Assembly: GCA_964550935.1 (NCBI GenBank)
Contig: CAZKBB010000005.1
Span: 1,705-65,704, forward strand
From: an uncultured Caulobacterales bacterium
Lineage (GTDB): Bacteria > Pseudomonadota > Alphaproteobacteria > Caulobacterales > Maricaulaceae
Direction of reading: 5' to 3'
Length of the DNA: 64,000 bases
Positions within the stretch are counted from its first letter, which is position 1. The number at the start of each line of letters is the position of its first letter. A program made the translations under genes and the position numbers. A model generated the notes under the pieces. The model was given only the letters and a program-made list of their open reading frames with translations. It was not told where the DNA came from and made no database searches. Positions 8,123 through 51,893 of the stretch are shown in pieces.

Positions 8123-8836
8123 TCAGGCCTTAACGCGGTCGCCCGCCTCGACCGGCTCGCCGGTTCGGATCGCATCGGCGAAGCGATGGTTCACGTCGCG
8201 GTGTCCGGCCTCGTCCTCGCGCACCTTGATCACGACGTCGCGCAAGGTGGCCGTGACCGGCAGGTCCCAGTATTCCCGAGCGATCTGGGGCGCGGGCACG
8301 TTCTCCATCTCCCCTGCGTCGATCGCCTCGAGGTAGTGCGTGTAGCTGACCACCGCCTCCTCCTCGAGATAGGCGACGAAGCGGTGCGCCACGCGCGGCG
8401 CGAGCAGATAGAGCCCGAAATAGGCGTGATAGAAGATGCCCTGCGCCAAGACGATGAGCCCGCGCTCCAGCGCACTCGGCTGAGCGATCTTGATAAAGGT
8501 CATCAAGTGCATGCGCTCATTGTCCGCTTCGTCGAGCAGCTCGCGGATCCAGCCCTGATCGTCGCGGATGTGGCGCAGCGCCTTGAGGTGCTGCAACAAC
8601 CCGCCGACCATGCCCGGCACGGCCGCGACCGTCTCGAGCACGACCGCGCGGTGGCCGTAGCGCTTCCTGAAGAACAGATCGGCGAACACCCGCATGAACT
8701 TCACCATGCGCAAGGCTAGCCGGTCGCGGAAGCCTTCAGGGTTGCGGCGCGCGGTCAAGGCGTCGGCGGTGAGGGCGTCAGGGTTGCGGGCGGTCACGGG
8801 ACACTCTCCAGTGCATATCATTCGACTGGACCGCAT
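8123..8836 (-). CDS. Alternative oxidase (di-iron ubiquinol oxidase)
   Basis: Di-iron helix motifs LETVAAVPGM, NERMHLMTF, LEEEAVVSYTHYL and RDDEAGHRDVNH. Start uncertain: TTG 8875, ATG 8836, or GTG near 8797 with SD GGAGAG. Confidence 0.85.
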   Translation of the reverse strand: MRSSRMICTGECPVTARNPDALTADALTARRNPEGFRDRLALRMVKFMRVFADLFFRKRYGHRAVVLETVAAVPGMVGGLLQHLKALRHIRDDQGWIRELLDEADNERMHLMTFIKIAQPSALERGLIVLAQGIFYHAYFGLYLLAPRVAHRFVAYLEEEAVVSYTHYLEAIDAGEMENVPAPQIAREYWDLPVTATLRDVVIKVREDEAGHRDVNHRFADAIRTGEPVEAGDRVKA

Positions 8837-8890
8837 GTGGGGGCCGGCCCGGCCGGGACAATAAAACCGGATCAAATGCCGCAGGCGGGC

Positions 8891-13389: not shown

Positions 13390-13493
13390 ACCGCACGCGC
13401 AGGCGGTGATCCGGCGCGTGCGCGCCGGGGAAGCCTCGCGCGCCAAGCTCTGGCATAGTGCCCGGTCTCCAGGCGACGGAGTATCGAGGCGAC

Positions 13494-15656
13494 ATGGCCG
13501 CTGACACGCGATCCGACACCCAAAAGACCGGAACAGACCCCGACGCCGGCGAGGACGCCCGCGCAGGCGAGGACGCTGCGCCGGAGGCGTTCTCTGAAAG
13601 CGCCGACGCCCTGCCCGCCACGACCGGGGGGCGCGCCCCCGCGACCGACGCCGCCTTTACGGCCGGAGCCGAGGCCGGCGTGCGCGGCTTCGATCGCAGT
13701 CCGACGCGCAAGGGCGAAGGCGATTCGATCGGCTGGGCCGGCGCGGCCTTCGCAGTGTTGTGGGCCGGCGGCGCGGGCGCCTATCTCGCGGGCTATCTCC
13801 TGCCCGACATCGCCAATCTGTCCCCGGCCCAGCTCGGCGGCTTCGCGGTGTTCGCCGTCGCGCCGGCGCTTCTGTTTGCGCTGGCGGGCCTTCTTGGCCG
13901 CGAAGTGGTGCGGGCCGGCAAGCGCGCTGAACGGATGGAGCGCGCGCTGTGGCGGCTCTCCAGCCCGTCCGAGCGCGCCGAGGGCGAGGTCAGAACGCTC
14001 GCCGACGCCATCTCCGTGGAGGTCGACCGGGTCAACGCCGCGATGGAGAGCGCGCTCGCGCGCCTGGCCGCGATGGAGGAGGTGATCACCCATCACGCGG
14101 ACAGCCTTGAGGGGGTCTCCGGAACCGCGCGCGAGCGCACCGAGGCCGCCGCCAAGGCGCTGCGCGAGGAGCGCGGCAAGCTGTCGGAGATCTCCGACTC
14201 GCTCGACGACAAGGCCGCGCTCATCGCCGCGGCGATCCAGGACCAGTCCGGCATGGTCGCCGAAGCCGCGCGCCTGGCCGAAGCGAGCGCCCAGGACGGC
14301 GAGGCGAAGATCAAGTCCGGCGCCGAGCGCCTCTCTGCGGCGGGCAAGAGCGCGGAGGAGGCCGGCTCTCGCGTGGCCCTGTCTCTGGATGCGCGCTCCA
14401 CCGAGCTGCGCGACTTCGCCGATACGCTGAAGAGCCGAACAGAAGGCCTGGAGGCGGCGTATCTGAAGCATCGCGACCGGCTGAGCGAGGCCGGCGAGGC
14501 GCTGCGCGGGGAGCAGGAAAAGATCGCCGCGGCGCTCGACTTCCACAAGGCCGAGCTGGAGCGCATGTCCTCCACCGCGCGCGACGGGGCGCTGTCGCTC
14601 AAAGGCGCGGCCGAGGAAAGCGGCCAGACGCTCAAACAGGCCGTCGAGGACGCGATCGAACGCGCCTCAGAGATGAACCGCCAGCTTGCCGCGGAAGCGG
14701 ACGCCACGATGCGCGAGCAGGACGCCGCGGTCGCCAAGCTGAAGGAGGCCGCCGAGGCCGCCAAGGTCTCCGCCGACGAGACCGCGCAGCGCTTCGACGC
14801 CCAGGCCGACGCGGCGCGCTCAGCGCTTGAACGCGTCAGCGAGACCGGCTTCGAGGCCGCGCGCCGCTCAGACGAGGCGTTCCAGCAGCGCCTGAAGGAG
14901 GCCGAGACGCTGACCGAGCGCGCCACCAAGGCCGCCGATGACGCCAGCGAGGCAGCGCGCACGCGCATGGAAGCTGCGGTCGAGGCCGCGCGCACCCAGG
15001 CCGAGGCGGTCGACGCCTCGCTCAACGCCCTGCGCGAGCAGCTGGAAAGCGCGCCGAACGAGGCGCGCGACACCGCCAGGCGTATCGAGACCGCGCTCGC
15101 CGACGGCCTGTCGGCGCTTAACAAGTCCGCCGAAGAAGCTACCGAGAACGCGCGCGAGGTCGACGCCCTGTTCCAGGCGCGCATCCGTCAGAACTACGAG
15201 CTGTTGTCCGACTTCATGCTGCGCCTTGGCGCGGTCGCGGGCGGGCGCAAGCCGATCGATATCGGCGCGGACGAACTGCCTGATCCGTTAAGCGCGCGCG
15301 CCACGGCTGAAGCGCGCGCCCGTCGCGAAGCGGACGCGGAGACGAAGACGCCGCTCGACGGCGCGCCAGAGGAAACCGTGAAGCCGCGCAAGGCGGACTG
15401 GACGCCGGCCAAGCCCGCCGCACCCGGCGCGGACGCCGATGCGCCTGATGACGGGCGCGGCGCGGCGCGCAGCGCTCCAAGCGACCGCGAGGCCCCTGCA
15501 GGCCGCCCGGCCGGCTGGCGCTGGAAGGACCTGCTCGCCAACATGGGCCCTGAGGGCGACGGCGAGCCCGGCGAGACCAGCCCGGACGCGACGCCCGCAC
15601 GCAAGGCCGAGCCTGAGACGCGGCCGGAAACCCGCAAGGATAAAAAGCAGCGCTAG
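13494..15656 (+). CDS. 2-TM, Ala/Glu-rich long coiled-coil protein (TipN-like architecture)
   Basis: Disordered N-terminus, two hydrophobic helices (WAGAAFAVLWAGGAGAYLAGYLL and LGGFAVFAVAPALLFALAGLLG), about 450 aa of heptad-like A/E/R/L sequence, and a disordered basic/acidic tail. Confidence 0.7.
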   Translation: MAADTRSDTQKTGTDPDAGEDARAGEDAAPEAFSESADALPATTGGRAPATDAAFTAGAEAGVRGFDRSPTRKGEGDSIGWAGAAFAVLWAGGAGAYLAGYLLPDIANLSPAQLGGFAVFAVAPALLFALAGLLGREVVRAGKRAERMERALWRLSSPSERAEGEVRTLADAISVEVDRVNAAMESALARLAAMEEVITHHADSLEGVSGTARERTEAAAKALREERGKLSEISDSLDDKAALIAAAIQDQSGMVAEAARLAEASAQDGEAKIKSGAERLSAAGKSAEEAGSRVALSLDARSTELRDFADTLKSRTEGLEAAYLKHRDRLSEAGEALRGEQEKIAAALDFHKAELERMSSTARDGALSLKGAAEESGQTLKQAVEDAIERASEMNRQLAAEADATMREQDAAVAKLKEAAEAAKVSADETAQRFDAQADAARSALERVSETGFEAARRSDEAFQQRLKEAETLTERATKAADDASEAARTRMEAAVEAARTQAEAVDASLNALREQLESAPNEARDTARRIETALADGLSALNKSAEEATENAREVDALFQARIRQNYELLSDFMLRLGAVAGGRKPIDIGADELPDPLSARATAEARARREADAETKTPLDGAPEETVKPRKADWTPAKPAAPGADADAPDDGRGAARSAPSDREAPAGRPAGWRWKDLLANMGPEGDGEPGETSPDATPARKAEPETRPETRKDKKQR

Positions 15657-26118: not shown

Positions 26119-27480
26119 TCAGCCCTGCCGGCCCGGAAGCGGCACGCCGAACGTGTCGGCCAGGCCTGCGATGATGATCGCGCCCACGGCGATCGGCGCG
26201 AGCCAGCGGATCGTGAAGCGCCAGTAGGCGAAGATGCGCGGACCGGCGTGGGGCAGCTCGTTCTGCATCAGCGACTTCGACACCACCCAGCCGGTGAACA
26301 GCGCGATCAAAAGCCCCCCGAGCGGCAACAGGATCTTGCCCGAGATCATGTCGAGCACATTGAAGTAGTCGCCTGAGAAGGCCGCGCCGACGCCGATCAC
26401 GAAGATGATCGCGCCGAAGAAGAGCGCCGAGCCCACGCGGCCGAAATCGGTGTGCTCCTCGCCGAAGGCCACGATGACCTGCAGCAGCGAGATCGAGCTG
26501 GTCAGCGCCGCGATGAAGGCGAGCGCGAAGAAGGCGGTGCCGACCCACTGCCCGCCCGGCATCTGCGCGAACGCCGCCGGCAGGGTCTGGAAGAACAGGC
26601 CCGGCCCGGCCGAGGCGCTGAAGCCGAAGGCGAACACGAACGGGAAGATCGCAAGCCCGGCGATGATCGCCACCATCGTGTCCGCGCCCGCGATGATGGT
26701 CGCGGACTGGGGCAGGTTTTCCCGGCGCGACAGATAGGAGCCGTAAGTGATCATGATCGCCGAGCCGACCCCGATGGAGAAGAAGGCCTGGCCAAGGGCT
26801 TCAAGCACGGTGTTCGGCGTGATCTCGGAGAAATCGACCGCGAACAAGTACGACACCGCCGCGCCCATGTCGGCGGTCATGGCGGCGTAGACCACAAGGC
26901 CGAGCAGCATCAGGAAGAAGATCGGCATCAGGATCGAGACCACCCGCTCAATGCCGGCGGTCACGCCGAGGCTCACCACCCCGACGGTCAGGATCATGAA
27001 CAAGCTGTGCCAGCCGATCACGACATTGGTGTCCGAGGTGAAGGCGGCGAACACCGCCCCGGCGGCCTGGGCGTCGAGCCCGGCGAACTGGCCGGTGAGC
27101 GTCATGTGGACATAGCCCGCCACCCAGCCGGCCACGACCGAGTAGAAGCACAAGATCATCACCCCGCCGGCCATCGCGACCCAGCCCGCGACCGACCACA
27201 GTTCGGACGCGCCGGCGTCGAAGGCCATCTTGCGCGTGGAGCCCACCGCGGAGCGGCGCGCATGCCGGCCGACCGTGAGTTCGGCGATCAGGATCGGAAA
27301 CGCGATCAGCGCCACGCAGACCAGATAGACGAAGACGAAGGCCGCCCCGCCGTTCTCGCCGGCCGTGTAGGGAAAGCGCCAGAAATTGCCGAGGCCCACA
27401 GACGAGCCGATCGCGGCCATCAGGAAGCCGAAGCGCGAGTTCCACGTGGTTTGATGAGCGCGGCTGCGCAGACCCGCCAT
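26119..27480 (-). CDS. Sodium-dependent neurotransmitter:sodium symporter (NSS/SNF) family transporter
   Basis: WNSRFGFLMAAIGSSVGLGNFWRFPY and 11-12 TM segments. Confidence 0.9.
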   Translation of the reverse strand: MAGLRSRAHQTTWNSRFGFLMAAIGSSVGLGNFWRFPYTAGENGGAAFVFVYLVCVALIAFPILIAELTVGRHARRSAVGSTRKMAFDAGASELWSVAGWVAMAGGVMILCFYSVVAGWVAGYVHMTLTGQFAGLDAQAAGAVFAAFTSDTNVVIGWHSLFMILTVGVVSLGVTAGIERVVSILMPIFFLMLLGLVVYAAMTADMGAAVSYLFAVDFSEITPNTVLEALGQAFFSIGVGSAIMITYGSYLSRRENLPQSATIIAGADTMVAIIAGLAIFPFVFAFGFSASAGPGLFFQTLPAAFAQMPGGQWVGTAFFALAFIAALTSSISLLQVIVAFGEEHTDFGRVGSALFFGAIIFVIGVGAAFSGDYFNVLDMISGKILLPLGGLLIALFTGWVVSKSLMQNELPHAGPRIFAYWRFTIRWLAPIAVGAIIIAGLADTFGVPLPGRQG

Positions 27481-27598
27481 GTCCTGTCCTCCCCCGGCGG
27501 CCGCCGCCCCGCGTCGCCCGCCTCCCAAATCGAAAACGCGCCCGCTGCGGCGCATTGGCGCGGAGGGTTCCCCATCGCGCCGGGACGGTCAAGCACGC

Positions 27599-41904: not shown

Positions 41905-42561
41905 TCAGCCCTCGCATGATTGCGGCGCGGCGCGCTTCACCGCGCGCAGGAGCGAGCCGGGCAGGAGATGGCCGCCGGTCCAGCCGGTCTCGACCCCGGC
42001 CGCTTCGAGCTGGCGGGCGAGCCAGACATTGCAGGTCTGGAACAGGTGATAGCGCGGCGCGGCGGCCAGAAAGGCCGAGCCGCGCGGGTCGAGCCCCTCG
42101 CCCTGCACGCGCACGCGGCCGGCCGCGCTGAGCGCGAGATCCTGCTCGATCGCGTCGGCGAGCGCGCGGGCCTTGTCCGGCGCCAGCGCCAGGCCCATCT
42201 CGTCGCCGGCGTAGGCCAAGCGCGGATCGCGATCGAACCAGGCCGCATGCAGCACCGAACGCGTCGGCCAGAGCACCGCGCCCGCCCCGTTCAGCGGGCC
42301 GAGCCCGCGATACGCGCGCGCATCGCCCCAGCCGATGGCGAACCAGTCCGCGTCCGGGCGCCAGCGCCTCAGGGGACCCTCGGCGTTGAACGCCTCGGCG
42401 GGGAGGTAGAGATTGGCGTGCCAGCCCGTCGCGCCGAGCCCGGCCTGCACGCACGGCCCCTCGCGCAGGCCCGGCGCCGGCGCGCCCGCACAAGCGGCGA
42501 GCAACGCGAAGACAAGCCCGGCGCAGCAAGCGCGCGCCGCCTCGATCCGTCCTCGCCGCAT
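41905..42561 (-). CDS. DUF2459 / TIGR02117-family lipoprotein
   Basis: Lipobox LLAAC, plus GWHANLYLP and HLFQTCNVWLARQLEAAG. Start taken at MRRGRIE. Confidence 0.65.
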   Translation of the reverse strand: MRRGRIEAARACCAGLVFALLAACAGAPAPGLREGPCVQAGLGATGWHANLYLPAEAFNAEGPLRRWRPDADWFAIGWGDARAYRGLGPLNGAGAVLWPTRSVLHAAWFDRDPRLAYAGDEMGLALAPDKARALADAIEQDLALSAAGRVRVQGEGLDPRGSAFLAAAPRYHLFQTCNVWLARQLEAAGVETGWTGGHLLPGSLLRAVKRAAPQSCEG

Positions 42562-42602
42562 GCGCACACCTTTCATCAACCCGCTTGACCCGTTATATTG
42601 AA

Positions 42603-43088
42603 GGTGTCCGTTTAGCGGCGGACTATGGCGATAAACGCGCGTGTAATAACCAGACCGGACCCGGGTGCGATTCCCGGCGGCTCCACCAACTCTCTTCTCC
42701 GTTCGTTGGACGGACAAGCGCTCGGGGCCGATCAGGATCGACGGATGGCTAAAGACGTTGCTTTCGCCCGACTGGGCTCCGTCAAAAGCCCGTTCAAAGT
42801 AGTTGCCAACGACAACTATGCTGAAGAGGTCGCTCTCGCCGCGTAAGCGGTGCGAGCATCTCGCTCTTAAGTCCTGACCTCTAGCATGGTCAGGCGGGGT
42901 TCGGGGGCGCCTGGCAACAGAAGCCCCCACTTATTCCCCCCTTTGGCCCTGTTTTACGTGACGGGACGCAAAGGCGACCGCGTAATTCGATGTGACCGGC
43001 GGCCCGACCGGGTTCGCCCGCCCCGCCTTCTCCGGCTAAGGCGATGTCTGCGTGATCAACGAGAGCGGCGCCCCCCCCAAACGGTACC
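42603..43088 (+). ncRNA. ssrA: Two-piece (circularly permuted) tmRNA
   Basis: The acceptor piece ends CCCGG-GTGCGAT-TCCCGG-CGGCTCC-ACCA at 42688. The coding piece starts GGGGCCG at 42724, pairing with CGGCUCC and including G3:U70. The tag frame at 42805-42846 encodes ANDNYAEEVALAA*. Outer boundaries are approximate. Confidence 0.88.
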
Positions 43089-43234
43089 CGGCTCCGTAAG
43101 CGCTTCACTCTGATCGAATTTTCGTGTCAGCGAAGGAACACGGCTCTCCGGCGGGTCGTTGTGGTGCAGGCGCCGCGGCGGGGTTCAGCTCGTCGACGGC
43201 GCCCAAGCAGCCCCAACGACGGAGCGACGTCGCC

Positions 43235-44101
43235 ATGATCAACTATGAGAACTTCTTCGCCTTCGACTACTGGCAGTACGAGGTCATACGCCACGTCTTC
43301 GGCCTGACGGTGGCGGTGTTCGCCGCCTCGCTGGTCTATTTCGCGATGACCGCGAAAAGCGTGCTGCCGCGCTTCCGCGCCACCTCCGCGATCTCCGCGG
43401 TGGTCATGGTCTCGGCCGCGATCGAGATCTTCACCCTCTGGCTTTTGTGGAACCAGGCCTACGCCTATGACGCGGCGTCGAACACGTTCGCGACCGTACA
43501 GGGCGAGGTGTTCTCCAACGGCTATCGCTACGCCAACTGGCTGATCGACGTGCCGATGCTGCTCACCCAGTTCCTGGTGGTGCTCGGCTTCACCGGCGCG
43601 GCCTTCTTCAAGCGCTGGTGGAAGCTGACCCTCGCCGGCGCTCTGATGATCGTCACCGGCTATGTCGGCCAGTACTACGAGCCGCAGGTCGCCGGGTTCG
43701 CGGACGGTTCGGGCTCAGGCTTCTGGATCTGGGGGATCCTCTCCTGGCTGATCTTCTTCTACCTGCTGTTCGCTGCGAACAGCGCGTTTAAGGACGGCGT
43801 CGGGAATCTGGACGCCTCGGTCCAGCCGAAGATGAAGCTCGCCTGGAGGATCCTGTTCTATTCCTGGTGGCTTTACGGCTTCGCCTATCTCGTCCCCGGC
43901 ATCCCGGTGATCAACGAGGACCCGAACTTCGTGGTCGTGCGTCAGATCATCTACACCGTGGCCGACATCGTCTCGAAGACGGTCTTCGGCGTGGTGCTGA
44001 CGATGGTCGCCGCCAAGCAGAGCGCGGTGGAGGATCCGCGTTACGCCGACGGCGAGCCGGAAGGCGCGATGGATCAGAGCAAAGGCGCGCCCACCGCCTG
44101 A
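43235..44101 (+). CDS. Microbial rhodopsin with an NDQ motif (candidate light-driven Na+ pump)
   Basis: 7 TM helices. Helix C is RYANWLIDVPMLLTQ (N/D/Q at 0/+4/+11). Helix G is YTVADIVSK (Asp and Schiff-base Lys). SAVVMVSA and MIVTGYVGQYYE are also present. SD GGAG lies 10 nt upstream of the ATG. Confidence 0.9.
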   Translation: MINYENFFAFDYWQYEVIRHVFGLTVAVFAASLVYFAMTAKSVLPRFRATSAISAVVMVSAAIEIFTLWLLWNQAYAYDAASNTFATVQGEVFSNGYRYANWLIDVPMLLTQFLVVLGFTGAAFFKRWWKLTLAGALMIVTGYVGQYYEPQVAGFADGSGSGFWIWGILSWLIFFYLLFAANSAFKDGVGNLDASVQPKMKLAWRILFYSWWLYGFAYLVPGIPVINEDPNFVVVRQIIYTVADIVSKTVFGVVLTMVAAKQSAVEDPRYADGEPEGAMDQSKGAPTA

Positions 44102-44158
44102 TCCGGGTCGCCTGATCCAGACTGCGTAAAGGCCGCTGAACCGCCCTACACCGAAGAG

Positions 44159-44191
44159 CGCCGCCGGAGCCCCCGCTCCGGCGGCGTTTTT
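44159..44191 (+). terminator. Rho-independent terminator of the rhodopsin gene
   Basis: Perfect 12-bp stem CGCCGCCGGAGC-cccc-GCTCCGGCGGCG followed by TTTTT. Confidence 0.8.
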
Positions 44192-45576
44192 CATGGCGCG
44201 TGCTCGATCCGCAGCGGCAGGCCGCCGCGCGGGCGGACCGTGACCTGCATCAGCGGCTCGACCTCGTGACCGTCGACGGGGCTGAGCGACACCGCGTCGA
44301 GCGCGCGCGCGAGCATCAAGCTCGCCTCGGTGAGCGCGAAGTGCGCGCCGATGCAGGTGCGCGGCCCGCCCCCGAACGGTGCATGCATGAAGGGGTCGCG
44401 CGGGCGGCGCTCAGGCGAGAAGCGATCAGGATCGAACCGCCCGGGCGCGTCCCACAGCGTTTCGTGGCGATGCAGGCAGTAGAACACCAGGAGCGCGCGC
44501 TCGCCGCGCCGGACCTTGCGGCCCGCGATCTCGGTGTCGCGCACCGCGCGCCGGCCGAGCGCCGGGGCGGGCGGATAGAGCCGCATCGCCTCCTCCAGCA
44601 CCTGGCGGATGAAGCCGAGCGCGCCGGGCTGAAGCGCGCCCTCGCCCGCCTCGGCGATCGCCGCGCGGGCCTCGGCGCGCGCGCGCCTCTGGGCCGTCGC
44701 ATCATTGGCCAGGAGATAGAGCGCCCAGGTCAGCGCGATCGCGGTCGTCTCATGGCCCGCCGCGATCAGGGTGATCAGCGTGTCGCGCACGTCTTCGTCC
44801 GACAAGGCCGCCTCGCCCTCGCTCTTCAACAACAGCCCCATGAGGTCGGAGCCGGGATCGGCGCGCTCGCGCCGGCGGCGGATCTGAGCCTGCGCGCAGC
44901 GCCGGAACACCGCACGCGCCCGGCGCGCCGCGCGGCTCATGGGCCGCGGGACCCATTCAGGAAACGGCGCCAGATCGACCAGGCGCACCACCCCGATCTC
45001 GCCGAGCAGGGTCTCCAGCGCCTGGCGCATCTGCGCGCGCTCCACCTCGCGGGCCTCGGAGAACAGGGCGTGCTCGATCACCTGAAAGGCCGCGTCGTTG
45101 AGCGCGCCCTCCACGTCGACCACCCCGGGCGCGCTTGCGGCGAGCCGCCCGGCGAGGTCCCGCGCGCAGGCGTCCATCATCGGCGCGAACGCCTCGATGC
45201 GCTTGCGCATGAAGGCCGGCTGCAGGCGCAGGCGCTGGGAGCGCCAGCGCGCGCCGTGCGCGGTGAACACCGCATCGCCCAGAACGGGGCGCAGCGTGCG
45301 CAGGATCAGCGGCGACTTGCGCCAGGCCTCGGGATCGTCGCGCAGCACCGCGGCGATTTCATCGGGACCGGAGAGGCGATGGACCACCGCGCCCATCGAT
45401 TCGCTTTTCTGATAGGTCTCGGTCAACAAGGACCGCGGCAGCGCGGAGAGCGGGTTCTCCTTCAGCCGCCGCGCGGTTTCGGTCAGGCCCGGCGCGCGCT
45501 CGGCGAGGCGGACTTCAGCGGGGCGGAAGGTCGCGCGCATGCGCTCACTCGCCGCTCGGGGCGCAGTTTCCCCCAT
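44191..45576 (-). CDS. Cytochrome P450
   Basis: I-helix AAGHETT, ExxR EEAMRLYPP, and heme-Cys loop FGGGPRTCIGAHFA. Start at 45576 (MGETAP) or 45540. Confidence 0.9.
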   Translation of the reverse strand: MGETAPRAASERMRATFRPAEVRLAERAPGLTETARRLKENPLSALPRSLLTETYQKSESMGAVVHRLSGPDEIAAVLRDDPEAWRKSPLILRTLRPVLGDAVFTAHGARWRSQRLRLQPAFMRKRIEAFAPMMDACARDLAGRLAASAPGVVDVEGALNDAAFQVIEHALFSEAREVERAQMRQALETLLGEIGVVRLVDLAPFPEWVPRPMSRAARRARAVFRRCAQAQIRRRRERADPGSDLMGLLLKSEGEAALSDEDVRDTLITLIAAGHETTAIALTWALYLLANDATAQRRARAEARAAIAEAGEGALQPGALGFIRQVLEEAMRLYPPAPALGRRAVRDTEIAGRKVRRGERALLVFYCLHRHETLWDAPGRFDPDRFSPERRPRDPFMHAPFGGGPRTCIGAHFALTEASLMLARALDAVSLSPVDGHEVEPLMQVTVRPRGGLPLRIEHAP

Positions 45577-45736
45577 GCATTCAACCCCTTCGCCCCTGTC
45601 TGGCGATATCAGCCCGCATTCATCCCACCCGCAACTTAACCGCGACCGCATGCAGACGAAACAGCATGGTGAATTGACGCGCCTTACGGCTCGACTACGC
45701 TCGCCCCTTGGACTTTCCGTGGGGAGGCGCGACGGC

Positions 45737-46249
45737 GTGGCCAAGGATCTGATGCGCTATGACAAGCTCGCGCAGAGCGCGCTGCGCACGGTCGTGCGCC
45801 AGGCGATCGAGCGCGCGGCCGGCGCGCAGGGGCTTCCCGGCGCGCATCATTTCTACATCACGTTCAAGACCCGCGACCCCGGCTGCGACGTGGATGACGG
45901 GCTCGTGGCGGCCTATCCCGACGAGATGACCATCGTCCTGGAGCATCAATTCTGGGACCTCGCCGCGGAGGCGGACTTCTTCGAGGTGACGCTGAAATTC
46001 GGCGGCGTCCCGAAGTATCTCAAGGTCCCCTACTCCGCCGTGACGCGCTTCCACGATCCGTCCGTCGGCTTTCATCTCCAATTCGACTACGAGACCCCGC
46101 CGGGCGGGCGCAAGCCTGCGCCCAAGCCCGCGCCCGACGCGCCCGTTGGCGAGAGCGCGGGCGATCCCGAAGCCGCCGGCGAGACCGGCGGCGAGGGCGA
46201 AGAAGGCACGGTGGTGAGCCTGGACGCCTTCCGCAAGAAGGACGGATGA
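45737..46249 (+). CDS. sspB: ClpXP adaptor SspB (alphaproteobacterial type)
   Basis: A GTG start at 45737 follows SD GGGGAGG. YDKLAQSALRTVVRQAIERAA...HHFYITFKT, an acidic/Pro linker, and a C-terminal ClpX-binding-like VVSLDAFRKK. Confidence 0.75.
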   Translation: MAKDLMRYDKLAQSALRTVVRQAIERAAGAQGLPGAHHFYITFKTRDPGCDVDDGLVAAYPDEMTIVLEHQFWDLAAEADFFEVTLKFGGVPKYLKVPYSAVTRFHDPSVGFHLQFDYETPPGGRKPAPKPAPDAPVGESAGDPEAAGETGGEGEEGTVVSLDAFRKKDG

Positions 46250-46700: not shown

Positions 46701-47093
46701 TCAAGCCGCCTGAGCGAGCGGGCGCGCGCGCACCTTCACCCGGGCCCGGTCTCCGTCGACCTTTTCCACGAACAAACGCTCGACCTGGCTGTCATCGTGG
46801 AACACGATGCCGGTCAGCGCGTCGAGCACGGCCTTGGCGACGTTGTCCACGTCGTGGCGCGGCGAGTCCGGCGTCTTCTCGATCGTGATCACGACCTCGA
46901 ACGGGCCCCATTTGGGCCGCGTGCGCTTGAACTCGGTGCGGAAGAACTCCCCGATCAACCCCTTGAAGCGCCGGGTCTGGGAGGTCACCGCATCGACGCG
47001 GAGATGGAGCGAACCGTTCATCGTGGCGGCCTGCACGCGGCCTCTCCCTGTCCAAGCGCTTCGGGCGATCTCGTCGTCGGCTTGATCAACCAT
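46701..47093 (-). CDS. rusA: RusA-family Holliday junction resolvase-like protein
   Basis: [26 protein letters not shown] matches E. coli RusA [27 protein letters not shown] (recalled from memory). The N-terminal half is atypical. Start is uncertain (47093 or 47021). Confidence 0.6.
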
Positions 47094-47188
47094 GGCCGAG
47101 TGATAAACACCCCGATTCGAACCCGTCCATCATCGAACCGCGCGCGCGAACCCGCAAGCGCGGCGCGCCCTTGCGTCAGGAGCCAGCC

Positions 47189-48580: not shown

Positions 48581-48688
48581 TCGGAACGCTGCAAAATTGT
48601 CGCAGTTCGCGCCTGCAGCACTTGAAGCGGGCCGCGCGCGATCCAGTTCAGGTCACCACGCACCACACGCAAGACCTGATGGATCGTC

Positions 48689-48925
48689 ATGCTTGAGAAA
48701 CGCTCGGTCACGCTTTCCGGCCACCGCACCAGCGTCGCGCTGGAGCCCGAGTTTTGGGCCGTCATCGAGATGTCGGCGCGCGACAAGGGCCAGTCCATCG
48801 CAGCCCTGATCAAGGAGATCGACGAGGGCCGCGCCGCATCGGGACTGGAGCGGCCGCTCGCCAGTTCGCTGCGCGTGTGGGCGCTGAAGCGCACCCAGAA
48901 CGGGGCGAAAAACGGGGCCGGTTAG
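48689..48925 (+). CDS. Ribbon-helix-helix (RHH_4-like) domain protein
   Basis: RSVTLSGHRTSVALEPEFWAVIEMSARDKGQSIAALIKEID...LASSLRVWAL. Confidence 0.65.
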   Translation: MLEKRSVTLSGHRTSVALEPEFWAVIEMSARDKGQSIAALIKEIDEGRAASGLERPLASSLRVWALKRTQNGAKNGAG

Positions 48926-49661: not shown

Positions 49662-51314
49662 ATGCCCGACAGCGTCCCCAAGCCCCACCGCCTGTCCCCG
49701 ATCGCGACGCTCCGCTGGACGCGCCGGGCCTTCACCGAAGGCCGCTCGCCGGCGCTGTGGCTGTTGGCGATCGTCGTCGGTGTGGCGGCCGGCTATGCCG
49801 CGGTCGGTCTGCGCCTGGCGATCCAGGGCGTGCAGTGGATCGCTTTCGGCGAGGCGAGCGAGCGCCTGGCGAGCGCGGCCGGGGCGCTCTCCCCGCTTCA
49901 CGTGATCATGGCGCCGGTGCTGGGCGGCTGCGTGGTCGCCGCGCTGCTTTACGCCGGCCAGCGCTTCAAATGGCTGCCCGAGGCGCGCGCCCAGGGCATC
50001 TCCGACGTGATCGAGACCCGCGCGGTGCGCGCCGGGCGCATGGACGCCGCGCCGGGGCTGCTCTCCGCGGCGATCTCGGCGGTGTCGCTGGGCTCAGGCG
50101 GCTCGGCCGGGCGCGAAGGCCCGGCGGTGCATCTGGGCGCGACGCTCGCGGCGCTGTTCACCCGCGCGCTGGGCCTGCCGCCGAGGGCCGCGCGCATCAT
50201 GCTCGCCTGCGGCGCGGCGGCGGCGGTCTCGGCGAGCTTCAACGCGCCGATCGCCGGGGCGCTGTTCGCATTCGAGGTGGTGCTCGGCCATTACGCGCTG
50301 CGCGCCGTCGCGCCGGTGGCCGCGGCGAGCGTGACCGGAGCGGTGATCGCAAGGCTGCACTTCGGCGCCACGCCCGCCTTCGCCCTGCCCGCGATTGAGC
50401 CGGCCTCGGTCGCCGACTTCGCGGCCATGGCGCCGCTCGGCCTCGCCGCGGCGGCGGTTGCGATCGCCTTCATCTCCACCGCCTACGCCGCCCCGCGCGT
50501 CGTGGCGCGCGCGGCCGAGCGCGCGCACTGGCCGCTCTGGGCGCTGCCGCCCGCCGGCGGGCTCGCGGTGGGCGTGATCGGGGCGATGTTCCCTGAGGTG
50601 CTCGGCGTCGGCTACGAGGCGACCGCCGAGGCGCTCGCGGGTGGGTATGCGCCGCTGCTTCTGGCCGGGCTGATCCTGGCCAAGCTCGCCGCGACCGTGA
50701 TCACGCTCGGCTTTCGCTTCGGCGGCGGGGTGTTCTCGCCCTCGCTCTATCTCGGGGCCATGCTGGGCGCGCTGTTCGGCGCCGGCGCCACGGCGCTGTT
50801 CGGCGAGCAGAGCGCCGGCCTCGCCCTGTTCGCGGTGGTGGGCATGGGCGCGGTCTCAGGCGCGGTGCTCGGCGCGCCGCTCTCCACCACCCTCATCGTG
50901 TTCGAGCTGACACAGAGCTATCAGGCCTCGATCGCGCTTCTGGTCGCGGTCTCGCTCGCCACCGTGGTCACCAACGCGGTCACCAAGGGCTCCTACTTCC
51001 AGAAGCAGGTGGAGCGGCGCGGCTATGACCTCACCGCCGGCAATGCGCGCGTCATCCTGCAGACGATCCGCGCGCGCGATCTGATGAGCGAGGTGGACAA
51101 GGCCGAGGCGCGCTTCGCCCGCGACGAGCCCCATGTGTACGAGGACGACTATCTCGGCCGCGTGCTCGGCTTCTTCTCGGCCGAACAGCTCGAAGGCGCG
51201 CCGGTGCGCGCGCGCGCCGGAGACCAGCCCGTGGTCGGCTATGTCTCGCGCGCCGACGCCCACGCCGCCTACGCCCGCGCCCTGCAAAGCGCGCATGAGG
51301 AGGAGCATCGCTAG
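49662..51314 (+). CDS. ClC-family chloride channel/antiporter with a C-terminal CBS-like region
   Basis: GSGGSAGREGP selectivity motif, GVFSPSLYLG, and more than 10 TM segments. Confidence 0.88.
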   Translation: MPDSVPKPHRLSPIATLRWTRRAFTEGRSPALWLLAIVVGVAAGYAAVGLRLAIQGVQWIAFGEASERLASAAGALSPLHVIMAPVLGGCVVAALLYAGQRFKWLPEARAQGISDVIETRAVRAGRMDAAPGLLSAAISAVSLGSGGSAGREGPAVHLGATLAALFTRALGLPPRAARIMLACGAAAAVSASFNAPIAGALFAFEVVLGHYALRAVAPVAAASVTGAVIARLHFGATPAFALPAIEPASVADFAAMAPLGLAAAAVAIAFISTAYAAPRVVARAAERAHWPLWALPPAGGLAVGVIGAMFPEVLGVGYEATAEALAGGYAPLLLAGLILAKLAATVITLGFRFGGGVFSPSLYLGAMLGALFGAGATALFGEQSAGLALFAVVGMGAVSGAVLGAPLSTTLIVFELTQSYQASIALLVAVSLATVVTNAVTKGSYFQKQVERRGYDLTAGNARVILQTIRARDLMSEVDKAEARFARDEPHVYEDDYLGRVLGFFSAEQLEGAPVRARAGDQPVVGYVSRADAHAAYARALQSAHEEEHR

Positions 51315-51658
51315 GGGCGGATGCGCAGCAGGGTCGAAAGCAGCACCGCGACCGCATCCAGCGTCTCTGGCGGCGCTGCGCCCAGCCGGCGCAAGCGACG
51401 TGACGCCGGATCGAGCGCGCGCACCTGATCGACGAGAACGCCGCTGCTCACCGCCAGCCCGTCAGGCAGGATCACCTTGAACGCATACGCGGCGGTGTTG
51501 GAGGTGATGGGACATCCGATCACGGTGCTGGCGCGGGCGTTGTAGATCGCCGGGGTCAGGATGAGAAAGGGTCGCCGGCCCGCCTGCTCACGCCCGGCCT
51601 GCTCCTTCATGACGACCGAGACGAGATCGCCGCGGTCCAGCTCGCCCGCTTCAGTCAC
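51311..51658 (-). CDS. mazF: Type II toxin, PemK/MazF family
   Basis: GTG start. LDRGDLVSVV...RPFLILTPAIYN...VIGCPITS. Confidence 0.8.
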   Translation of the reverse strand: MTEAGELDRGDLVSVVMKEQAGREQAGRRPFLILTPAIYNARASTVIGCPITSNTAAYAFKVILPDGLAVSSGVLVDQVRALDPASRRLRRLGAAPPETLDAVAVLLSTLLRIRP

Positions 51659-51893
51659 GGATCACTTCCGCGCCCAGATCGGGACCGGCGTCGATGATGT
51701 CGGGGCGCTCCTGATCGTCCATCTGGGCGACAAGGTCTTCGAGCGTCGCCCGCTTGCTGGCGCCCATGACCAGCGTGCCGCGTTCGAGCGTCAGCTCCAC
51801 CTCGTCGCCGGGCGAAAGGCCGAGGGCCTCCAGATAGGCGCGCGGCAGCCGAACCGCCGCCGAGCGTCCCCATTTTCCGATAAGCGCCTTCAT
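51651..51893 (-). CDS. mazE: Type II antitoxin, AbrB/MazE/SpoVT family
   Basis: MKALIGKWGRSAAVRLPRAYLEALGLSPGDEVEL. 8-nt overlap with mazF. Confidence 0.8.
   Translation of the reverse strand: MKALIGKWGRSAAVRLPRAYLEALGLSPGDEVELTLERGTLVMGASKRATLEDLVAQMDDQERPDIIDAGPDLGAEVIRD

Follow-up and report, generated by a model that had tools for sequence, protein, structure and literature searches.

A candidate sodium-pump rhodopsin gene of the NDQ Subgroup 2 Gly clade, preceded by a sigma-EcfG-type promoter motif, in an uncultured Caulobacterales bacterium

The window analysed here is a stretch of 64,000 nucleotides from an uncultured Caulobacterales bacterium (contig CAZKBB010000005.1), and the gene of interest within it encodes a microbial rhodopsin of 288 aa (43235..44101, + strand, ATG to TGA). 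This gene lies downstream of a transfer-messenger RNA (tmRNA) gene, is preceded by a motif resembling the promoters of EcfG, a sigma factor of the extracytoplasmic function (ECF) type, and is followed by a hairpin terminator and a convergent cytochrome P450 gene. Using profile, PDB, alignment and tree evidence, it was assigned to the Gly-switch clade of Subgroup 2 of the NDQ (Asn, Asp, Gln) rhodopsins. A preliminary description of this DNA had reported a seven-helix opsin of 288 aa, and the open reading frame (ORF) was found as claimed, as were all of the peptides it quoted, namely RYANWLIDVPMLLTQ (N101, D105 and Q112), YTVADIVSK (D244 and K248), SAVVMVSA and GEVFSNGY.

The predicted protein has the microbial (type-1) rhodopsin fold by its match to Pfam PF01036 (Bac_rhodopsin; E=3.2e-31, 109 bits against a cutoff of 24.6 bits) and the Schiff-base lysine in helix G (K248), while no NCBIfam model matched it at a threshold of 1e-5. 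An AlphaFold2 model, for which an alignment of 52 relatives served as input, has a mean pLDDT of 95.5 and shows a short N-terminal capping helix, seven long helices and a beta-hairpin between helices B and C. The ATG at 43235 is taken to be the true start because the N-termini of the closest homologues align there, opening with MINYENFF or MPNYENFF at the same residue, and because nucleotide similarity to the gene of an Oceanicaulis metagenome-assembled genome (MAG) begins at 43233, two bases 5' of this codon. An in-frame GTG extension from 43124 is unconserved and overlaps the promoter-like motif. No record of an identical protein was present in the assembly index, the best match being that of the Oceanicaulis MAG (89%).

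The helix C motif at 43535..43570 (+) comprises N101 (43535-43537), D105 (43547-43549) and Q112 (43568-43570), which correspond to N112, D116 and Q123 of KR2 from Krokinobacter eikastus. In helix G, the segment at 43964..43978 (+) holds the second counterion D244 (KR2 D251), S247 at the A/TS switch (KR2 S254) and the retinal Schiff-base lysine K248 (KR2 K255). Alignment with HMMER and MAFFT also matched R98, E64, E5, E149, R236, W102, W211, Y214 and L109 to KR2 positions 109, 74, 11, 160, 243, 113, 215, 218 and 120, respectively. The retinal-pocket residues W102, W211, Y214, L109 and S247 are conserved with KR2, and the mapped functional residues, K248 included, are invariant across 52 members of the subgroup. 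The protein has Asn, Asp and Gln at KR2 112/116/123 (85/89/96 of bacteriorhodopsin, BR), together with D244, R98 and the extracellular Glu-Glu-Arg cluster (E5/E149/R236) of the NDQ sodium-pump rhodopsins (NaRs). At KR2-116 it carries Asp105 and not the Thr of NTQ chloride pumps, and with Asn101 and Gln112 it lacks the Asp at BR-85 and the carboxylate at BR-96 of DTE/DTD proton pumps. Xanthorhodopsin (XR) and proteorhodopsin (PR) chains matched only at E=1e-30 to 1e-8 in a phmmer search of the PDB. The sequence and the model support an NDQ light-driven sodium-pump rhodopsin; the same class had been proposed in the preliminary description, and this call stands, given that N101/D105/Q112/D244/K248 align with KR2 N112/D116/Q123/D251/K255. 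The KR2 strings quoted there agree with the KR2 chain in the PDB.

The NDQ clade has been split in two, with Leu or Ile at the KR2 L74 position in Subgroup 1, which includes KR2, and Glu (ErNaR E64) in Subgroup 2, where the D102 interprotomer Na+ site of KR2 is absent or substituted (Podoliak et al. 2024, PMC11006869). The window's rhodopsin is regarded as a Subgroup 2 member because it has Glu64 in helix B (codon 43424..43426, +), which by alignment is the extra Schiff-base counterion and is invariant in the 52 relatives, Glu91 at the KR2 D102 position (codon 43505..43507, +) and Arg19 (43289-43291). It also grouped with ErNaR and SrNaR and not with KR2. ErNaR of Erythrobacter sp. HL-111 (PDB 8QLE/8QLF/8QQZ/8QR0, 9TBD-F; PMC11006869) is its best match in sequence, at 52% identity (phmmer E=2.7e-83 against 1.6e-43 for KR2, with ErNaR chains about 100 bits above any Subgroup 1 chain), and in fold (TM 0.95, rmsd 1.4 Å), the top Foldseek matches of the model being 9tbd, 8qle and 9tbf at 1.4-1.5 Å. 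As there is no indel over residues 3-157, helices A to D are numbered identically in the two proteins, N101/D105/Q112 included; a structure-guided placement of these three residues had been set beforehand as a test of the class call, and this numbering and the superposition of the model at 1.4 Å bear it out.

Like the window's protein, ErNaR comes from an alphaproteobacterial host and has Glu64, E91, R19, the E5/E149/R236 cluster and S247-K248. Unlike it, ErNaR belongs to the Pro-bearing part of Subgroup 2, with Pro at KR2-219 (Gly215 in the window), reads DVSSK and not DIVSK in helix G, and has an FG loop three residues shorter and a different C-terminal tail. SrNaR (Salinarimonas rosea DSM 21201, L023) is likewise an alphaproteobacterial member of Subgroup 2 (Glu74, NDQ; approximately 51-54% identity), with a relaxed GAAC-N17-CGTT upstream at its locus, but has Pro at 219, Met at 102 and a blh gene approximately 2.3 kb downstream. 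KR2, the Subgroup 1 prototype, shares the NDQ motif, D251/K255, R109, the E11-E160-R243 cluster, the N-terminal helix and the BC hairpin (TM 0.88-0.91), whereas it is only 37% identical, has Leu74, the Asp102 interprotomer Na+ site, Pro219 and an N61/G263 entrance, stems from a flavobacterial host and is pH-sensitive in colour and function. It had served as the reference of the preliminary description; the alignment to it is valid, but it is not the closest relative, with ErNaR at 52% and JsNaR of Jannaschia seosinensis at 51.5%. Similarly, N, D and Q had been read correctly there, while Glu64 and Gly215 were overlooked.

Two local differences from KR2, Glu for D102 and Thr for Phe before the Gln, had been put forward earlier as peculiarities that might matter for ion binding, but both proved to be signatures of Subgroup 2. 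Thr111 is conserved at 90% or above across the subgroup, and ErNaR reads MLATQ here. In ErNaR, E91 lies 2.5 Å further from the would-be Na+ site and forms a salt bridge with R19, and Na+ is not bound between protomers (Podoliak et al. 2024, PMC11006869). As the window's protein has both E91 and R19, as in ErNaR, and as the KR2-102 position is freely variable in the clade (E, Q, A, K, M, F and others), Glu91 is unlikely to be an ion ligand, and Arg19 is its likely partner. The earlier statement that few members are alphaproteobacterial no longer holds. Of 124 sequences in the alignment, comprising the top 120 protein clusters of a search of 5.8 billion proteins together with the window's protein, ErNaR, KR2 and IaNaR, 118 carry Glu-74 with NDQ, and the named carriers are mostly Alphaproteobacteria. 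A NaR in this class is unsurprising, since the characterised ErNaR, JsNaR and SrNaR are all alphaproteobacterial, and the protein itself is a further member of a described ErNaR/JsNaR-type subgroup that is common there.

The combination of NDQ, Glu at L74 and Pro at 219 was also observed in six aligned rhodopsins of 40-46% identity, from loci L045, L057 (Blastococcus), L078, L050, L061 (labelled Acidimicrobiia) and L046 (Phycisphaerae); those of L047 and L051 (labelled Modestobacter) were left out of this translation and alignment. In a neighbour-joining tree these six take a position between the alphaproteobacterial group and KR2; the extra counterion, which they carry, thus also exists outside Proteobacteria.

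Gly215 (codon 43877..43879, +) occupies the site of the almost universally conserved proline of helix F (KR2 P219, BR P186), aligning with Gly216 of JsNaR at the G/P colour switch. JsNaR absorbs at 550 nm and its G216P mutant at 523 nm, while the P219G mutation shifts KR2 from 525 to 535 nm; JsNaR transports Na+ in NaCl and H+ in CsCl, and in 2019 it appeared as the lone Gly-bearing NaR among Pro-bearing ones (Inoue et al. 2019, PMC6491443). By analogy with JsNaR, a red-shifted absorption maximum near 550 nm is predicted for the window's protein from Gly215. The neighbour-joining tree (140 sequences, 268 columns, 200 bootstraps) placed all 78 Gly-bearing sequences in a single clade in 200/200 bootstraps, with the window's protein and JsNaR both inside and ErNaR and SrNaR in the Pro-bearing remainder of Subgroup 2. 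The protein's partner in the tree is that of the Oceanicaulis MAG (88.5% identity, 98.5% bootstrap). Other members of the clade come from Rhodobacterales, Maricaulales-like MAGs, Idiomarina, Halomonas, and Burkholderiales and Gemmatimonadales MAGs.

JsNaR (WP_055664831) shares with the window's protein this fully supported Gly clade, Glu at L74, NDQ, Gly at P219 and Ser at 254, and has its own experimental record of Na+ pumping and of 550 nm absorption due to the Gly. It differs in lying on another branch of the clade, in having Phe at the D102 position (Glu in the window), in its origin (Rhodobacterales, from a solar saltern), and in that no strict EcfG motif was found upstream of its gene. 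The Gly switch, known in 2019 from JsNaR alone, marks a large monophyletic clade (78 of the 140 tree sequences), which spans Maricaulales and Rhodobacterales and, by transfer, Gammaproteobacteria and MAGs of Burkholderiales and Gemmatimonadota. It supplies many natural candidates for Na+ pumps that are red-shifted (Gly clade) and pH-robust (Glu64, Subgroup 2), with possible optogenetic use. Two proteins of the clade, P0034 and P0067, have a natural Gln at the E64 position, the equivalent of the ErNaR E64Q mutant. A metagenomic protein from ENA, P0064, is nested inside the clade with an NTQ motif, Ala at E64 and Asp at the E160 position, and may represent an independent conversion from NDQ to NTQ, which is chloride-pump-like.

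Upstream of the rhodopsin gene, the sequence GGAAC-N17-CGTT (43135..43160, +) ends 74 nt before the ATG and resembles the -35/-10 elements of sigma-EcfG, making it a candidate promoter of the general stress response. The published EcfG consensus, GGAAC-N17-20-GTT, is enriched within 100 bp of coding sequences, and transcription starts 13-14 bp past the motif (PMC6599016; 10.1101/641647). The window's motif is an exact match to the sigma-EcfG form (GGAAC-N16-17-CGTT), with a 17-nt spacer and less than 100 nt from the coding sequence as in direct targets, and it is the sole match on either strand of the 64 kb. When the strict motif was taken as GGAAC-N16/17-CGTT across loci, it was present in sense orientation at most 200 nt upstream of the rhodopsin gene in 8 of 37 alphaproteobacterial loci and in none of 44 from other phyla or classes, and once in antisense; 2000 shuffles that preserved dinucleotides gave 0.074 loci on average and two at most. 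Besides the window, the carriers are the Oceanicaulis MAG, two MAGs of Pseudomonadota, Roseicyclus, Loktanella (sp. SALINAS62), an Erythrobacter MAG and Parvularcula dongshanensis (DSM 102850). Counted from the start of the rhodopsin gene, the strict motif begins at -98 (L006), -91 (L007), -103 (L017), -93 (L018), -62 (L022), -88 (L030) and -144 (L042). In six of these eight loci, 62-78 nt separate the motif from the ATG; the hexamers are kept while the spacers are unrelated. With one mismatch, the motif was additionally found in three genomes of Salinarimonas (the host genus of SrNaR), Sphingomonas lenta, P. oceani and three Rhodobacterales. Since it is present in the Oceanicaulis MAG despite a different upstream neighbour, the motif appears to travel with the gene.

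This recurrence suggests, at the level of sequence, that the rhodopsin is under general-stress-response control. The literature searched contained no paper with both "EcfG" and "rhodopsin" and none tying a rhodopsin to the general-stress-response regulon, and the EcfG-type promoter is possibly the only new point of this gene. It offers a testable idea of when NaRs are expressed. If the idea is true, light-driven Na+ extrusion would be one of the means by which the PhyR-NepR-EcfG pathway answers starvation, salt or osmotic stress. This pathway is light/dark-modulated in Erythrobacter litoralis (PMC6599016; 10.1101/641647). A simple sigma-70 promoter scan found nothing, but the same tool also missed an obvious terminator, and no riboswitch or other RNA was detected with Rfam in the 5' region of the rhodopsin gene. 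That intrinsic terminator (44153..44191, +) consists of a 12-bp G+C stem (44159-44186) followed by a T5 run, with an A-rich flank (folding dG -40.4 kcal/mol, z -6.55), and its hairpin at 44159-44191 is common to the rhodopsin gene and the convergent P450 gene.

The alphaproteobacterial tmRNA gene ssrA, of the two-piece (permuted) type with the tag ANDNYAEEVALAA, was detected at 42567..42937 (+) by RF01849 (252 bits) and ARAGORN, with 298 nt between its end and the rhodopsin start codon upstream of which it lies. The Oceanicaulis MAG has this tmRNA as well (L001, 3210-3546; same tag, 89% identity at the nucleotide level), there downstream of the rhodopsin gene, so that the order of rhodopsin and ssrA is swapped between the two related genomes. 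Among the loci of 34 relatives, only that of the Oceanicaulis MAG has a tRNA or tmRNA gene adjacent to the rhodopsin. Scars of a genomic island were sought, but neither a direct repeat of the ssrA 3' end within 10 kb nor an integrase was found. It is quite possible, if a little short of an even judgement, that alphaproteobacterial Subgroup 2 NaRs are direct EcfG targets and that promoter and gene form one small cassette, inserted to one side of ssrA in one Maricaulales genome and to the other side in a related one. The position beside ssrA and the lack of a nearby blh bear on how the gene spreads. As regards the earlier account of the local context, it had correctly noted that blh and crt genes are missing but had overlooked the tmRNA gene and the EcfG-type motif upstream.

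The placement in an alphaproteobacterial chromosome, as proposed in the preliminary description, was corroborated by the tmRNA, by synteny with the Oceanicaulis MAG and by the neighbouring genes. The class is confirmed by the alpha-type two-piece tmRNA, and a chromosomal location is supported by housekeeping genes in the window (mreBCD, pbp2, rodA, ilvC, miaA, degP, hflKC, folA, thyA, fumC, uvrD, prmA and ribF). The window has a G+C content of 69.4%, and the third-position value (GC3) of the rhodopsin gene, 0.88, lies within the 0.80-0.95 of neighbouring genes, in agreement with the host-like codon usage noted before. Given this GC3, a dip in G+C to 0.62-0.64 over the gene is explained by hydrophobic codons at positions 1 and 2.

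It is considered highly probable, from sequence and comparative analysis taken together, that the gene encodes a pentamer-forming, outward light-driven Na+ pump of NDQ Subgroup 2 and the Gly clade, with a probable sigma-EcfG-type promoter. Its mechanism can be proposed by homology with ErNaR and KR2. All-trans retinal would be bound to K248 as a protonated Schiff base, with D105 as primary and D244 as second counterion, and a protonated E64 would form a very short hydrogen bond to D105, keeping the pKa of D105 low and rendering colour and Na+ pumping nearly independent of pH. In ErNaR, the corresponding low-barrier hydrogen bond between protonated E64 and D105 measures 2.1-2.2 Å and keeps the D105 pKa low, colour and Na+ pumping hold from a pH of about 4.3-5 to 9 with negligible proton pumping, and the effects of the E64L/Q mutations have been described (Podoliak et al. 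2024, PMC11006869). Once the retinal has photoisomerised, the proton of the Schiff base would pass to D105. Na+ would then enter from the cytoplasm past Q112, which is expected to line the uptake path, and cross the neutral Schiff base. N101, facing the pentamer interface at rest, would flip inward to hold a transient Na+ with D244, and release would proceed via R98 and the E5-E149-R236 cluster. A Na+ site between protomers is not expected, with E91 paired to R19 by analogy with ErNaR. Gly215 in place of the helix-F proline would cause a red shift, JsNaR absorbing at approximately 550 nm, ErNaR at approximately 535 nm and KR2 at 525 nm. Transcription would probably run from the sigma-EcfG-type promoter at 43135-43160 to the hairpin at 44159-44191, making the pump part of the alphaproteobacterial general stress response, and retinal would be supplied by genes beyond the window or from the environment.

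Several observations weigh against this joint reading. All functionally characterised relatives are at most 52% identical to the window's protein, and the cytoplasmic entrance differs from that of KR2 in the alignment, with S51 for N61 and T256 for G263, positions that influence cation selectivity in KR2 mutants. The promoter assignment concerns a nine-base consensus, seen in its strict form in only 8 of the 37 alphaproteobacterial loci; similar GGAAC/CGT elements are recognised by other ECF sigma factors, and ecfG, nepR and phyR were not seen among the window ORFs scanned. Furthermore, none of the Pfam families PF15461, PF01593, PF00494, PF05834 and PF00348, covering blh and crt genes, was found among approximately 66 ORFs of the window, so that holoprotein formation in this organism is a presumption. 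It is quite unlikely that the protein is a functional retinal pump with a physiological substrate other than Na+, either mainly outward H+ or, by altered selectivity through the S51/T256 entrance, K+ or Li+. JsNaR of the same Gly clade does pump H+ without Na+, and the replaced entrance positions are variable in the clade (F/S/A at 61; A/S/T/G at 263), but every characterised NDQ protein, ErNaR and JsNaR included, pumps Na+ when it is present, and SrNaR has also been called a sodium pump by Podoliak et al. (PMC11006869). The N/D/Q/D/R/E-E-R set is invariant as well, and the H+ current of ErNaR is negligible even at pH 5.

An intact but idle gene is a second alternative, the product being a chromophore-free apoprotein in a genome without blh or carotenoid genes and the gene a remnant of a transferred cassette. 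The absence of blh and crt from the 64 kb, stated in the preliminary description, was borne out by the Pfam scan and by a tblastn search with an Algimonas blh, which gave no match in the window but matched within a few kb of the rhodopsin in the loci of about 20 relatives. The gene also adjoins ssrA, a classic site of island insertion, lies on its other side in the nearest relative, and is more similar to that relative (88.5% at the amino acid level) than are the flanking ThyA (82%), P450 (54%) and DUF2459 (48%) proteins. Against this, the ORF is full-length with all functional residues intact, its GC3 is host-like, a promoter-like motif and a strong terminator flank it, and the 64 kb in view are only part of a genome, while many rhodopsin-bearing bacteria keep blh and crt genes elsewhere or import retinal; an idle gene is judged very unlikely. 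An anion pump or a sensory rhodopsin is extremely improbable. The chloride pump NM-R3 is nearly equal in fold (TM 0.94-0.95) and has the same sequence score as KR2, and P0064 shows that an NTQ motif can be nested in the Gly clade, yet the window's protein has Asp and not Thr at KR2-116 and keeps Glu64, and no transducer or signalling gene adjoins it.

With regard to carotenoid binding, the "fenestration" for the carotenoid in xanthorhodopsin is formed by a Gly in TM5, which reportedly is conserved among NaRs; carotenoids are bound by NM-R2 and NM-R3. In helix E of the window's protein, W166-G167 (43730-43735) is conserved (compare KR2 W170-G171), with G167 a tentative counterpart of XR G156, and no antenna is claimed. 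At the beta-ionone ring, Gly215 of helix F is on the same side as the TM5 Gly.

The cytochrome P450 gene (44191..45576, - strand) is convergent with the rhodopsin gene and has the terminator in common with it. The best PDB match of its product is 7wzl; it matches CYP102 and the plant carotenoid hydroxylases CYP97A/C at about 1e-34 to 1e-38, falls below every NCBIfam cutoff and shows no diagnosable subfamily. It was considered as part of the rhodopsin system and rejected, as it is syntenic only in the Oceanicaulis MAG, with a hybrid histidine kinase and ssrA in between, and is absent beside the rhodopsin in the P0002 and Algimonas contigs.

On the other side of the rhodopsin gene, an ORF at 41905..42930 (-) overlaps the tmRNA gene, and its N-terminal third is considered spurious because the tmRNA occupies 42567..42937; the true start of the DUF2459/TIGR02117 lipoprotein gene is probably close to 42555-42570. 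The adaptor protein that serves ssrA-tagged proteins, SspB, is encoded 2.6 kb from ssrA. It belongs to a set at 45539-46249 (+), 46701-47129 (-), 48680-48925 (+) and 51311-51661 (-) comprising SspB, a RusA-family resolvase, an RHH_4 protein and a MazF/PemK-like toxin, of which the latter three are scattered downstream; these genes may be left over from mobile DNA in the vicinity of the tmRNA gene. An SNF-family Na+-dependent transporter (26119-27555, -) and a ClC chloride channel/exchanger (49662-51314, +) are also encoded in the window; neither adjoins the rhodopsin gene, and no conserved linkage was seen in relatives. A 732-aa ORF at 13458-15656 (+), with a coding-like GC3 of 0.87, was matched by neither Pfam nor NCBIfam. 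An alternative oxidase (AOX, PF01786, E=9e-83) is encoded at 8123-8875 (-), adjoining a MarR regulator.

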